64,000 nt of DNA from an uncultured Parachlamydiaceae bacterium (lineage in GTDB: Bacteria > Chlamydiota > Chlamydiia > Chlamydiales > Parachlamydiaceae), in contig CAVVXH010000006.1 in the NCBI GenBank assembly GCA_963752155.1, positions 160,001 to 224,000 of the forward strand. The letters run 5' to 3'. Shown here one piece after another: positions 52,694 to 56,272 of this stretch. The position numbers were made by a program, and so were the translations under genes. The notes beneath the pieces were generated by a model, which was not told the DNA's origin, made no database searches, and worked only from the letters and a program-made list of their open reading frames with translations. The first letter of the stretch is position 1; each line of letters begins with the position of its first letter.

Positions 52694-55600
52694 ATGCAAC
52701 CTCAACTTTTATTATTCTCCCCTAAAATCCCTTCCATTTTTTTTCCACCGGAATTAAAAAATGAACTGGAAGAAATATTCTCACGCATCAACACATCCGT
52801 TTCAGATATTCTTCTTTATGAAAACCCAAAATTTAAATCGAAAGATCCAAAGGCTCTTATTGTACCCAGATACTCTCTCATTAGAGAAATATCTAAACAA
52901 TTAACTCGCGAAAATACATTACAACAAAACATCAAAAGATTTTATAATTTTTGGAATGAACATTCCGGTCAATTGGGTAGGGTATCAATTGTCAATCGAC
53001 AAAAACTTGAGAAGCTTACTGCATACATATTAAATTTTTCTTCAAGCAAAAGTGCACCCCCAAAATATGCTCAGATAATTATTGAAACACATCACAAATT
53101 ATTAAAGCTTATCATCAACAATGACAAAAAAGAAATAATCGAAAGATGTTTACGACCTTCACATTTTTTTACTCGAAGGGGCTTCTATCACGTAAACACT
53201 CTTCATGGGGAAAGTTTGAACACGGAACATTTACACATAAAACAAATTCTTCTCGACTTTCTTAAAACACCATCTGAAATAAAGTTACCGAATCATCCTT
53301 ATATTCTTTTTAAATACTTAAATGGATATTGCTCTTTAAGCGAACTAAAGCTTACGCATCAAAACGCACGCAGCTTTCTTGTGATGGCTAAACTCATTGA
53401 TATGGCTGTCGCAGAATACAACCGCACTATCGATACCAAAATCATTTTTCCAAAATCTACGTTTGAACTCCGCACACACATCTTAAACCTATGCTCCCCT
53501 TTGATGACCACCGGTGAAGCATACACGAAAGCCTTGGATCCACGTAGATATAAAGATCGAGCTTATTTGAGCAATCCTCTTCATTGGATTCCGGAACGGG
53601 TGAACCAACATCTTGCAATTACGGCAAATCAAATTATTACTCTACTTCAACCATCCGGAAACTTAAATCAGATTACACCTTCTATTTCATTAATTAAAGG
53701 GAATACAGGAGCGGGTAAAAGCTTTGAAGTTGGAAAAATTAATACAGAAAATAAGCTTGGAGTCTCTCTCACCGTTGACAGCATTAAAGCTCTCTTAAAA
53801 AATGAGAAGATATCAAGAAAAACTATGCGTCTTGTGAACAATCAGGTTCATGATGAAGGTGTCAGTCTTTTTAATGAAATCCTATCCAATCTATGGAATG
53901 TAGCTGAAAATACCGACTTCTTAATTGAAGGTAGATTTTCATCCGTAGAAGAAATCAATACTGTTCTAAGATCAGCTAAAAGTCGTCAAACGGAAGTCCA
54001 GTTACTTGAAGATATCGAAACTCCCCTCTTAACGTCTCTTTACCGTGTTCTTACACGCGATCCTTATGCCGATCCTTGTCCTCCTTTATCGGAAATTATC
54101 AAGGGACATAAAGAATCTATCAGCTATTTAGAACAACTCATTTCTTTGATCAAGAAAGAATCTGCAATCAAACATTTTAAATTATATTATAACGATGAAT
54201 TCGGAAAAAAACACCTTGTTGTCGAAAAGCAAGATGGAAAATTTAATTTACTTTCTAAAGATTTATTAGATCAATGTTGCCGTATCCCATCCGATCTAGA
54301 AATTGATCAAACTATTGAACAAGTTATTACCGAACAGCAAATCAACCTTGCAATAGAGCGTGGATACATCACCAAAGAATCAAAACCACTGATGATGCAA
54401 TGGGAAGGGATTCCATTCGGGAAGGCTGTGGAAATGCATGCTTTAGGCTTACCCATCGAGAAAGCTCGATCACTCATCATCGAAGAAGCTAAATACCGCG
54501 AACTCTATGGCACCTATGAGATGCAGCCTTATGACGGTGTATGGTTAGCCGATTTTCCCGGCCTTCATGATTATAACTGCAGCGAGCATTTACTTGATGT
54601 CCGAAATGTCTGCGAAAAGGGAAAGGGTTTGCATTTTCCGGCAAATAAATTTGCATGGAAACTCAATCCAAAATTCAATCCCGAAGCGCGTCTCCCCAGT
54701 GCAAAGCGTGGCGGATTCCAAATGAAAATCGGATATTTCGTCATCCCTCTTGACAAAGCTGAGACGATTGTCAATGAACATCTCTCGCCGGAAGTGTTAA
54801 AAGAACTTGAAGTGCGAAATAACAGCGGAGAACTCATTGGGTATCGATTATTCGTTCATCCCGAAGCTTATGACCATTTCAAAACCTTGCATGATGCCGG
54901 AATTTCTTTCATGAAGCCTGAAAATTCAGAATATATGGGGACACCGACATCTTCTTATCGATCATGGGTCTTACGTCGCATAGACAAAAAGGCCAAAACT
55001 ACTCCATTTATTGCTAAATTCGGAGTTGCGAGTTCACCCACTGACACACGACGTCTATTGCCGAAATTCGATATCGAAAAAAGTCTTCATGCACAAAATG
55101 TCCTCGACCGGGTTCCTGAAGATCAATTGAAAAAGAAGGGCGACGGATCTGACTTATTATTCTTCAAAGAAAATTTTGGTATTTCTCTTAAAAATGTCGA
55201 CAATTACCCCCCTCAAGCTCAAACAGGAGGGGGTGAGTGTATTGGTTCAGGAATGATTGTCCGCGAATTTCCACCTGAACTTCTTGACGGAACATGCAAA
55301 ATTCTAAGTTTCTCCGCAATTATGTCTACGGAACGTACCAAAAAAGAGAATTATGGCCTATGCTCATTAATAAAAAACAAAGGCTCGGGAGCTTTACCAC
55401 TGATCTATGAGCTCATTCTTGTTGCAATGGAAAAAAGGTTGGTAAAGACAAGTGAAGAATTTCTGGATAAATATATTCTTCGCGGATTTCTCGATGCAAC
55501 AGAAGCTATTCACATGCAGCATGGAATCTCATTTGCTCCTCATGGACAAAACCTTTGTCTAGTCTTAAACAGTGATAATACTCCTCGTGGATTGGCTTAC

Positions 55601-56272
55601 CGCGATATGGAAGGAGTGTCTATCATACCCGGAGAGAATTTTCTCAATACATTTGGAATGTTTCGTCAACATATATCAAACAAACTAGCGGCATTGATGG
55701 TCATTCATGAAGAAGACCTAGATCCGCCTCAAGGGGCTCCCACGGAAGTAGGTTACAAAGAACCGCAGTCTGAACGAGCGCTCATGCGCTATCTCATCGC
55801 ACATGTCAACCACAACAAAGAAATACGCAAGAAGTCAATTGATATAATGTTAAAATTAAACATTTGTTTTAGTCATTATAAGGGCTATCTTAAATATGTT
55901 GACGCCGCTTATTTAGAAAAGCTTAACTGCTACTTCGATGTAGCTAAAGCGAGAATTCTTCGAAAAGATGGAACTTTTCCGGCTGCAGAAGCGGGCTCAA
56001 CAAATGAACTTTTAGTGCAGCAATGCAATAATTCGCTTTGGAAAAATCGAAAAATCACAAATGATTTAAAAGTCAATAAACCTACTTTAATTAAAATGTC
56101 TTCGTTTATTCATCCAATGTTTGATTCTTTATCAATGCTTCAAGGAGTGAGCATTCGTTTGAGTAGTTCCTTTTCATTACCGAATCTTGCGAAGAACTCT
56201 GCGACAAAGAAAAAACAAATTCCTAAATGTTCAGTCAAGGAAATTGTTAAATGGCATCAAGAATTGAGATGA
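52694..56272 (+). CDS. Multidomain protein: zeta-toxin-like P-loop kinase plus IucA/IucC (NIS synthetase)-like domain
   Basis: [18 protein letters not shown] and IEG in the central part; [25 protein letters not shown] and YRDMEG in the C-terminal part. Confidence 0.7.

Follow-up and report, generated by a model that had tools for sequence, protein, structure and literature searches.

An AvrRxo1-type kinase joined to a siderophore-synthetase-like ligase in a Parachlamydiaceae bacterium, and its recurrent association with a regulator-transporter gene pair

Background

The AvrRxo1/XopAJ proteins of Xanthomonas, Acidovorax and Burkholderia are type III effectors, toxins of toxin-antitoxin pairs and 3'-kinases of nicotinamide adenine dinucleotide (NAD) and nicotinic acid adenine dinucleotide (NAAD). 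According to PMC5087710, AvrRxo1 adds a phosphate to the adenosine 3'-hydroxyl of NAD and of NAAD about equally well, its D193N variant is catalytically impaired, and it conserves the ATP-binding residues of zeta toxins but not those that bind UDP-N-acetylglucosamine (UNAG). The present work concerns a gene of an uncultured Parachlamydiaceae bacterium in which a kinase of this kind is followed by a domain related to the nonribosomal-peptide-synthetase-independent siderophore (NIS) synthetases. The gene occupies positions 52694..56272 of a stretch of 64,000 nucleotides (contig CAVVXH010000006.1 of assembly GCA_963752155.1, positions 160,001 to 224,000), referred to here as the window. An earlier note, made from the letters of the window, had described it as a fusion of a zeta-toxin-like kinase and an IucA/IucC-like ligase. 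The protein is regarded here, with roughly even confidence, as a bifunctional ATP-using enzyme that most likely stays inside the bacterium and belongs to a cassette of a LysR regulator, a major facilitator superfamily (MFS) transporter, an AvrRxo1-type kinase and, optionally, an NIS-like ligase.

Two further groups of described enzymes are needed for comparison. The epsilon/zeta toxins (PezT and zeta) are UDP-N-acetylglucosamine 3'-kinases with a P-loop kinase fold. The NIS synthetases comprise AcsD, IucA, IucC, SbnC, AsbB, AlcC, DesD and NcdF, and are built of fingers, palm and a thumb domain, the last being described for all NIS synthetases in PMC9356276. In AcsD, R305 is critical to the formation of the adenylate, a mutant of H444 was also covered, and E442 is both the general base and the reader of the acyl acceptor, E442D and E442Q being inactive (PMC3323832).

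The nearest precedent is a set of long AvrRxo1 homologues with a C-terminal Fic/Doc domain, reported in Saccharimonas and Parcubacteria, some of which keep an arc1-like partner (Triplett et al. 2016, PMC4938570). There too the kinase is fused to a second nucleotide-using, in that case adenylylating, domain, but the partner is Fic/Doc and not NIS-like, and chlamydiae are unmentioned in that paper. Our literature search, which left most subscription journals outside, returned no paper in which AvrRxo1 or the zeta toxins are linked to either IucA/IucC or Parachlamydia, nor any mention of IucA in the papers listed on chlamydiae and siderophores. It likewise found no description of the fused architecture, in agreement with the earlier note, whose author knew of none.

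Domain composition of the protein

The gene is a single uninterrupted open reading frame (ORF) on the plus strand, with an ATG start and 1192 codons; its product is P0001. All the motifs listed in the earlier note were identified where it had placed them: GNTGAGKS at residue 336 (nucleotide 53699), VDSIK at 361, HDEG at 386 and IEGR at 411 in the kinase half, and VHPE at 721, PTSSYRS at 751, HGQN at 950 (nucleotide 55541) and RDMEG at 970 (nucleotide 55601) in the ligase half. A word-index search, with 8000 candidates scored, gave 19 relatives at E<=0.001 with 36-48% identity, of which two are named, both as "Parachlamydiaceae bacterium". In the resulting alignment of 20 sequences the N-terminus is variable, the kinase block is conserved and the C-terminal block is conserved better still; all 30 invariant columns lie within residues 617-826.

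The middle domain belongs to the AvrRxo1/XopAJ branch. Residues 273-582 match the NCBIfam model NF041405 at 4.2e-30 over model positions 1-323 of 324, with a score (105.1 bits) far under the family cut-off of 300. The AvrRxo1-ORF1 structures 4z8q and 4z8v were the only real match in the PDB, at 6.1e-10 with the single sequence (phmmer) and at 1.2e-43 with the family profile, the latter spanning chain residues 24-330 of 333, so that the homology covers the whole solved domain. The Walker A motif is G336-S343, D362 aligns with the catalytic D193 of AvrRxo1, and the QVHxE motif (QVHDE, 384-388) and R414 are also kept. The Walker A Lys and Ser, D362, QVHxE and R414 are nearly invariant across the 20 aligned sequences. 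Judged by these motifs, the middle domain is a catalytically intact kinase of the AvrRxo1 family and a distant member of it.

A classical zeta toxin was considered and rejected. The Pfam Zeta_toxin family (PF06414) matches at 3.7e-4 with 20.4 bits, under its gathering score of 22.3, and no zeta toxin structure was among the PDB matches at E<=10, either with the single sequence or with the family profile. The fold and the ATP-site motifs are shared with zeta toxins, whereas the UNAG-binding motif is already lost in AvrRxo1 (PMC5087710). The zeta-like P-loop kinase of the earlier note stands, and its placing among the toxins that phosphorylate UDP-sugars does not.

The C-terminal domain was related to NIS synthetases along several lines. 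Pfam identified FhuF (PF06276, the C-terminal domain of IucA/IucC enzymes) at residues 941-989, around HGQN, with 8.3e-6 and 26.8 bits against a cut-off of 25.2, and no match of the protein to IucA_IucC (PF04183) at E<=10. When all of 1.84 billion representatives were searched by phmmer with residues 585-1120, 116 proteins matched at E<=0.001, of which 77 reached E<=1e-10 and 52 reached E<=1e-30. The Pfam scan took 52 of the 64 more distant relatives (P0062-P0125): 40 of these carry PF04183 at E<=0.001, 31 of the 52 being at or over its cut-off (at least 25 bits), five carry FhuF alone and seven carry neither.

The AlphaFold model of the ligase domain, built with 19 sequences, has a predicted local distance difference test (pLDDT) of 90.4 and a predicted template modelling score (pTM) of 0.90. 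The top Foldseek rows listed were all NIS synthetases, IucA being first at 5e-12. A second fold search, made independently of Foldseek, gave Z scores of 19.3 for AcsD, 19.1 for IucA, 18.6 for SbnC, 17.8 for AsbB, 15.5 for NcdF and 15.0 for IucC, with 347-371 residues aligned at 12-16% identity; the matches then drop to Z of at most 10.7 for WaaP, protein kinases and aminoglycoside kinases. Finally, a profile of this domain and 36 stand-alone relatives matched 14 PDB sequences at E<=0.01; every one is an NIS synthetase, AsbB (9e-14) and AcsD (1.4e-10) among them. According to the model, the C-terminal domain is the fingers and palm of the NIS-synthetase fold. Transitive homology, fold and profile-to-structure match together settle the relationship, and the IucA/IucC-like ligase that had been proposed is borne out by FhuF above its cut-off and by both fold searches. 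The two Pfam profiles suggested earlier as a check were below cut-off (PF06414) or unmatched (PF04183); support came instead from FhuF, the AvrRxo1 profile and the NIS fold.

All the ATP/Mg-binding residues of AcsD are kept. By profile alignment, AcsD S279, R281, T282, K293 and R305 correspond to S754, R756, S757, K775 and R787, and AcsD H444, Q446, N447, D464 and E466 to H950, Q952, N953, D971 and E973. S279, R281, T282, K293, Q446, N447 and D464 of AcsD serve in ATP/Mg binding and adenylation.

Two features of NIS synthetases are missing. The structural alignments begin at residues 124-157 of the NIS chains and at residue 38-42 of the model, without a counterpart of the thumb domain. Nor is there space for one between the end of the AvrRxo1-like domain, at about 582, and the beginning of the ligase, at about 591. 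Ala948 takes the place of AcsD E442, which precedes the His of H.QN by two residues. Of 40 fused proteins, 34 have a readable motif (the remaining six are truncated or degenerate), and Glu was identified at this position in none, being replaced by Ala in 14, Ser in 13, Pro in 6 and Leu in 1. Among the distant, unfused ligase relatives the motif was found in 46 of 62, with Glu in 38 of the 46. As the thumb is lost and the E442 equivalent replaced while the ATP/Mg residues are retained, the predicted picture is of a conserved adenylation half-site and an altered acyl-transfer half-site. In two close relatives, P0030 and P0036, the motifs REFP and H.QN are lost, as is the Arg of PTSSYRS, and their ligase domains are probably inactive copies.

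Failure at the curated cut-offs, together with the lack of these two defining NIS features, is the reason to keep the protein apart from the NF041405, PF06414 and PF04183 families. It differs from AvrRxo1 also by a different helical region of 269 residues in front, by the ligase behind and by the LysR-MFS cassette in chlamydiae. The N-terminal region is helical and of no known kind, as had been noted: its model has a pLDDT of 72 and a pTM of 0.40, and Foldseek gave nothing in the PDB at E<=0.001, the model itself being moderate. The hidden Markov model (HMM) of this region also matches kinase-only relatives. A complex prediction of the kinase domain with the ligase domain scored 0.01, against a mark of 0.32.

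Fused, split and reversed forms

HMMs cut from the family alignment were run on the 61 closest proteins, which come from independent assemblies, and 40 of them have both halves, arranged as in the window's protein. A mis-assembled junction is thereby ruled out, and the fusion proposed in the earlier note is genuine and recurrent. The ligase is also encountered as a separate protein of about 520-570 residues. One such protein, P0024 (567 residues), closes a split form at locus L006, where the order is kinase (812 residues; NCBIfam 5.5e-33), LysR, MFS and ligase; it has Ser, not Glu, at the general-base position. The same locus (L006 1-3224; G265 contig 41, 19755-25704) contains three tandem AvrRxo1-like paralogues with open frames of 788-853 residues, beside the LysR, MFS and ligase genes.

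The reversed order was identified in three metagenomic proteins of about 1550 residues, P0065, P0084 and P0085, with the NIS-like domain at about 850-1110 and a classical Zeta_toxin domain at about 1346-1520 (5.8e-28 to 4.7e-16). P0069 is related to this set and contains the NIS-like domain only, without a zeta domain. The four proteins span about 1340-1590 residues, P0085 has HEAT repeats in addition, and all four have Asn or Ser in place of the His of H.QN, with Gln at the general-base position. For proteins of the P0065 type, two metagenome scans gave no locus, the atlas search gave no usable match and the word-index search gave only the query and P0042. Other fusions of the NIS-like domain are with a ThsB-type TIR (Toll/interleukin-1 receptor) domain in P0089 and with a preceding cytidylyltransferase-like domain in P0115 and P0125; its other partners are all nucleotide-handling. 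The fused, split and reversed-order forms together imply that kinase and ligase mark steps of one pathway.

Genomic context and the LysR-MFS cassette

The features of the locus are collected in Table 1. The earlier note had taken the gene to stand alone, with no related genes nearby; this does not hold, as a conserved LysR-MFS pair lies 1.6 kb upstream, the LysR stop and the MFS start overlapping by 4 nucleotides. The neighbours of the kinase-ligase gene in the window are LysR, MFS, F-box and rhomboid genes.

Table 1. Coordinates of the kinase-ligase gene, its domains and the neighbouring cassette genes in the window
Feature	Position	Strand	Basis or remarks
Whole gene (P0001)	52694..56272	+	helical N-terminus, AvrRxo1-type kinase, NIS-synthetase-like ligase, non-conserved tail
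N-terminal region, residues 1-269	52694..53500	+	all-helical, variable among relatives; 177-266 conserved and confidently modelled
AvrRxo1/XopAJ-type P-loop kinase, residues 270-585	53501..54448	+	NCBIfam, PDB profile match
NIS-synthetase-like (IucA/IucC + FhuF-type) adenylating ligase, residues 591-1115	54464..56038	+	Pfam FhuF, fold, profile
Further key ligase residues	H722-P723		ligase domain
C-terminal tail, residues 1116-1192	56039..56272	+	unconserved in relatives; final 26 nucleotides overlap a minus-strand gene fragment
LysR-family transcription regulator	48911..49819	+	Pfam HTH_1 and LysR_substrate; conserved cassette
MFS transporter, chlamydia-specific family	49816..51057	+	Pfam MFS_1; conserved cassette
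F-box protein gene between MFS and kinase-ligase	51315..52460	+	Pfam F-box-like 4e-14; also a weak tetratricopeptide repeat (TPR) match

To the loci already at hand, 20 further stretches around kinase or ligase matches were added from the phylum sample, and their ORFs were searched with HMMs of the cassette LysR and MFS proteins. Both genes were identified inside the fetched stretch at 11 of 26 distinct kinase- or ligase-bearing loci: the window, L003, L004, L005, L006, L008, L034, L040, L043, L045 and L046. A probable twelfth cassette is split between two contigs of one genome: L058 contains LysR-MFS and then, at the contig end, an ORF similar to the N-terminus of the kinase protein of L043 (1e-23), and L039 has a kinase at the contig start. 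These loci are spread over several families of the order.

The arrangement varies. LysR, MFS and kinase follow each other with 4-nucleotide overlaps or short gaps in L034, L040, L043 and L046, the MFS and kinase genes overlapping by 4 nucleotides in L046 and L040. The kinase gene is downstream of the pair in L034, L043 and L046, as it is in L004; it is upstream in L003 (gene 2118-7022, LysR 7025-7915, MFS 7908-9182) and L005 (gene 5866-9285, LysR 9282-10145, MFS 10149-11345), and convergent in L008. Because gene order and flanking genes vary among loci, the association is not simply part of one larger conserved block. The F-box gene between the MFS and kinase-ligase genes probably lies outside the cassette, since it is on the opposite strand at the same place in L004 and absent from the other cassettes. 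A second F-box gene is present at 47977-48717 (-), so that two of them flank the LysR-MFS pair.

L008 is a second cassette of this same genome (contig 8, L008 7689-12187) and comprises LysR (285 residues), MFS (402 residues) and a convergent kinase-only paralogue of 790 residues. The latter matches the XopAJ model at 1.1e-36, has no ligase domain, and its Walker A is GNTASEKS, with Glu replacing the usual Gly. A 2-oxoglutarate-Fe(II) oxygenase gene is located just upstream, at 6636-7487 of L008. The ligase is absent from 7 of the 12 cassettes, the probable L058/L039 included.

The MFS protein of the window is 34-53% identical to cassette MFS proteins elsewhere, and its atlas clusters are mostly from Chlamydiota. 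No relatives of it were found in the PDB at E<=1, and no NCBIfam family was matched besides one sub-threshold Tet match in one orthologue. That single efflux match is of little help to the idea of a drug or toxin defence, in which kinase and ligase would inactivate a harmful molecule, the MFS protein would pump it out and LysR would induce the set. A LysR regulator, an MFS transporter and a modifying enzyme are the usual layout of inducible efflux or inactivation loci, the cassette is accessory and patchy, and the ligase palm fold also resembles aminoglycoside phosphotransferases (Z about 9). No relative of known resistance kinases was detected, however, the best matches being AvrRxo1 and NIS synthetases, and a defence role appears unlikely.

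A minimal NIS siderophore system, in which the ligase would make a polycarboxylate chelator for export by the MFS protein with the kinase as an accessory, is suggested by the NIS fold, the adenylation residues and the nearby MFS gene. Loci of one synthetase plus an MFS gene are known in Legionella (lbtA-lbtB) and Francisella (fsl). Here the core of the cassette is the kinase, the ligase being absent from most cassettes, and the ligase has neither the thumb domain nor the general base. PF04183 was found neither in the protein nor in any gene of this genome, which is 80% complete, and the neighbouring genes scanned in the window and in the relative loci included no receptor gene and none related to iron. 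A siderophore role is accordingly very unlikely.

On the 3' side of the gene, the interval 56273-57279 holds a palindromic repeat and a minus-strand gene fragment. No co-directional ORF of at least 80 residues was identified in it, so that an arc1/AvrRxo2-like downstream partner was not seen, no homology search having been aimed at arc1. The repeat is a nested palindromic element directly 3' of the gene (56475-56849) with perfect inverted arms of 47, 43 and 38 nucleotides; a 32-nucleotide arm of it has 15 copies in the window, in clusters at about 11045-11317, 37511-37784, 56486-56838 and 63070-63343. The fragment, a 60-residue ORF at 56247-56429 (-), aligns with positions 1-53 of the Pfam family AAA-ATPase_like (PF09820) at 5.4e-25 and is a truncated gene remnant. 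The tail of the kinase-ligase protein, which overlaps this remnant, may be a recent read-through.

The downstream region also bears on a role as a toxin-antitoxin or anti-phage toxin, whose kinase would poison the cell's own NAD pool once released from control. AvrRxo1 is also a toxin of a toxin-antitoxin pair (PMC4938570), and a TIR domain is the partner in the distant ligase relative P0089. A small co-directional partner gene is lacking, its place being taken by the repeat element, and the size of the protein, its domain fusion and its linkage to a transporter are unlike known toxin-antitoxin layouts. This role is thus highly improbable. The defence, siderophore and toxin readings are all less likely than a cytoplasmic role in the cassette or a role as an exported effector.

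Neither promoter nor terminator predictions can be used as evidence, their counts being close to those of shuffled sequences: 28 promoter-like sites against 28.3 expected and 6 terminator-like sites against 5.7. The promoter of its own that had been attributed to the gene is thus not confirmed; the candidate TTAACA-16-TATACT at 52656-52683 is one among these 28 sites. Elsewhere in the window there are two giant open frames, at 1-10017 (+; 3338 residues, open at the window start) and 11465-23332 (+; 3955 residues), and a 979-residue ORF at 59929-62868 (-) without any Pfam family at E<=0.001.

Role inside the cell or in the host

The choice is mainly between a cytoplasmic enzyme and a secreted one. 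The former, a transporter-coupled two-step enzyme acting on a small molecule in the cytoplasm, is the reading we adopt with middling confidence. It is favoured by the operon-like coupling of kinase and transporter across families of the order, by the presence of the cassette twice in this genome, and by the fused, split and reversed forms. The earlier note had offered a bifunctional effector or a single-gene metabolite synthase. The kinase-ligase fusion is true and conserved, but the gene is not a lone one, and its linkage with LysR-MFS in many genomes moves the odds from an effector towards a transporter-coupled pathway.

Several observations weigh against a cytoplasmic role in the cassette. 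No LysR-MFS pair was identified in the fetched stretch at 15 of the 26 loci, 3 of these 15 being cut by contig ends. The MFS family is present in 349 of 400 sampled genomes, in most of them without the kinase, and it is circular that the kinase-linked MFS genes score highest, as the same genes built the profile. Among the best-scoring MFS genes outside the training set, those of G239 and G095 have neither LysR nor kinase beside them, and that of G172 is accompanied by LysR and by an ORF of unknown kind that the contig end truncates. In the window itself, the F-box gene and an AT-rich spacer of 233 nucleotides separate the kinase-ligase gene from the MFS gene. A stand-alone ligase of the Glu type, that of G144 (L053), has no LysR-MFS pair and no kinase within 8 kb. 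The distribution is also patchy: in the sampled genomes of the phylum the ligase domain was identified in 4 of 401, this genome counted, and the kinase domain in 21 of 400, as would be seen for host-directed effectors. A GTDB scan gave five loci, all from metagenome-assembled genomes of Parachlamydiaceae, Parachlamydiales or Parachlamydia.

This patchiness, typical of accessory effectors, is one of the points that make a secreted bifunctional effector a possible explanation, if a clearly lesser one. Such a protein would be exported by type III secretion to the amoeba cytosol, where the kinase would make 3'-phosphorylated host NAD or NAAD, the ligase would modify a host carboxylate on a metabolite or a protein, and the variable N-terminus and ankyrin additions would aim at host targets. 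Its kinase is homologous over the whole length to a type III effector that makes 3'-NADP and 3'-NAADP (PMC5087710). Relatives have ankyrin repeats (Pfam PF12796 in P0002) or ankyrin-like N-terminal extensions, as read from the alignment, and N-termini vary among them. The genome contains a type III export-gate gene (FHIPEP, an SctV homologue) on contig 10, 589611-591652 (-), with 651 bits and one in-frame TGA, which could be a sequencing error, a frameshift or the sign of a broken gene. No antitoxin-like partner was seen in the interval scanned downstream, and a cytoplasmic NAD kinase of the AvrRxo1 type might then harm the cell unless exported. The kinase-ligase gene also sits among F-box genes, although this adjacency carries little weight because such genes are very numerous in this chlamydial family (PMC4209131). 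That the kinase gene is coupled in many genomes, operon-like and with 4-nucleotide overlaps, to genes for a regulator and an inner-membrane transporter would be odd for an exported protein.

For a cytoplasmic enzyme of the cassette, the following course may be proposed. The MFS protein would carry a small molecule over the inner membrane, and LysR would sense that molecule; the transport would probably be the import of a precursor from the host. Sets of regulator, transporter and enzyme most commonly work in this way, a precursor from the host being imported and then phosphorylated. NadR with PnuC (ribosylnicotinamide kinase, NMN adenylyltransferase and transporter) follows a like logic, where transporter, regulator, P-loop kinase and adenylating activity act in turn on one salvaged precursor; the likeness is a functional analogy only, without sequence relation, and the adenylyltransferase fold of NadR differs. 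The kinase would then phosphorylate a hydroxyl of the imported molecule, which by analogy with AvrRxo1 may be the 3'-hydroxyl of the adenosine ribose in an ADP-linked compound. The ligase would spend a second ATP on adenylating an acid group, either of this molecule or of a partner. Without the usual base for acyl transfer, its second half-reaction would be unlike that of siderophore synthetases: either the nucleophile would need no deprotonation, or the adenylate itself would be the product.

In this scheme the chemistry of the domains, phosphate from ATP to a hydroxyl and ATP-driven adenylation of an acid group, is predicted with reasonable security. A more specific version, which we consider doubtful, is that AvrRxo1-type kinases, otherwise known only as injected effectors and toxins, were recruited in chlamydiae as metabolic enzymes of a transporter-coupled cassette, and that in the fused form one host molecule, once imported, is acted on first by the kinase and then by the ligase. 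After phosphorylation of the hydroxyl, the NIS-like domain would adenylate the new phosphate or a carboxylate (for example of a deamido-NAD-like compound), giving a stable ADP-linked or 3'-phosphorylated dinucleotide outside textbook metabolism. If true, the NIS fold would have acquired a new chemistry, and the route, be it salvage or signalling, would be new as well.

Conclusions

The AvrRxo1 family is extended by these proteins from plant pathogens to amoeba-associated chlamydiae, where its members occur in an operon with a transporter and a regulator, a placement that questions the assumption that every member of the family is an effector or a toxin. The ligase adds a thumb-less branch of the NIS fold, which lacks the customary general base and is found time and again in association with zeta-like kinases. 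The occurrence of two domain orders and of a split form is classic evidence of two activities that serve one pathway. The cassette is small, with three or four genes, and could be tested in Escherichia coli, which would make a metabolite or cofactor route of obligate intracellular bacteria approachable. Its conservation points to a small-molecule pathway that has not been described.

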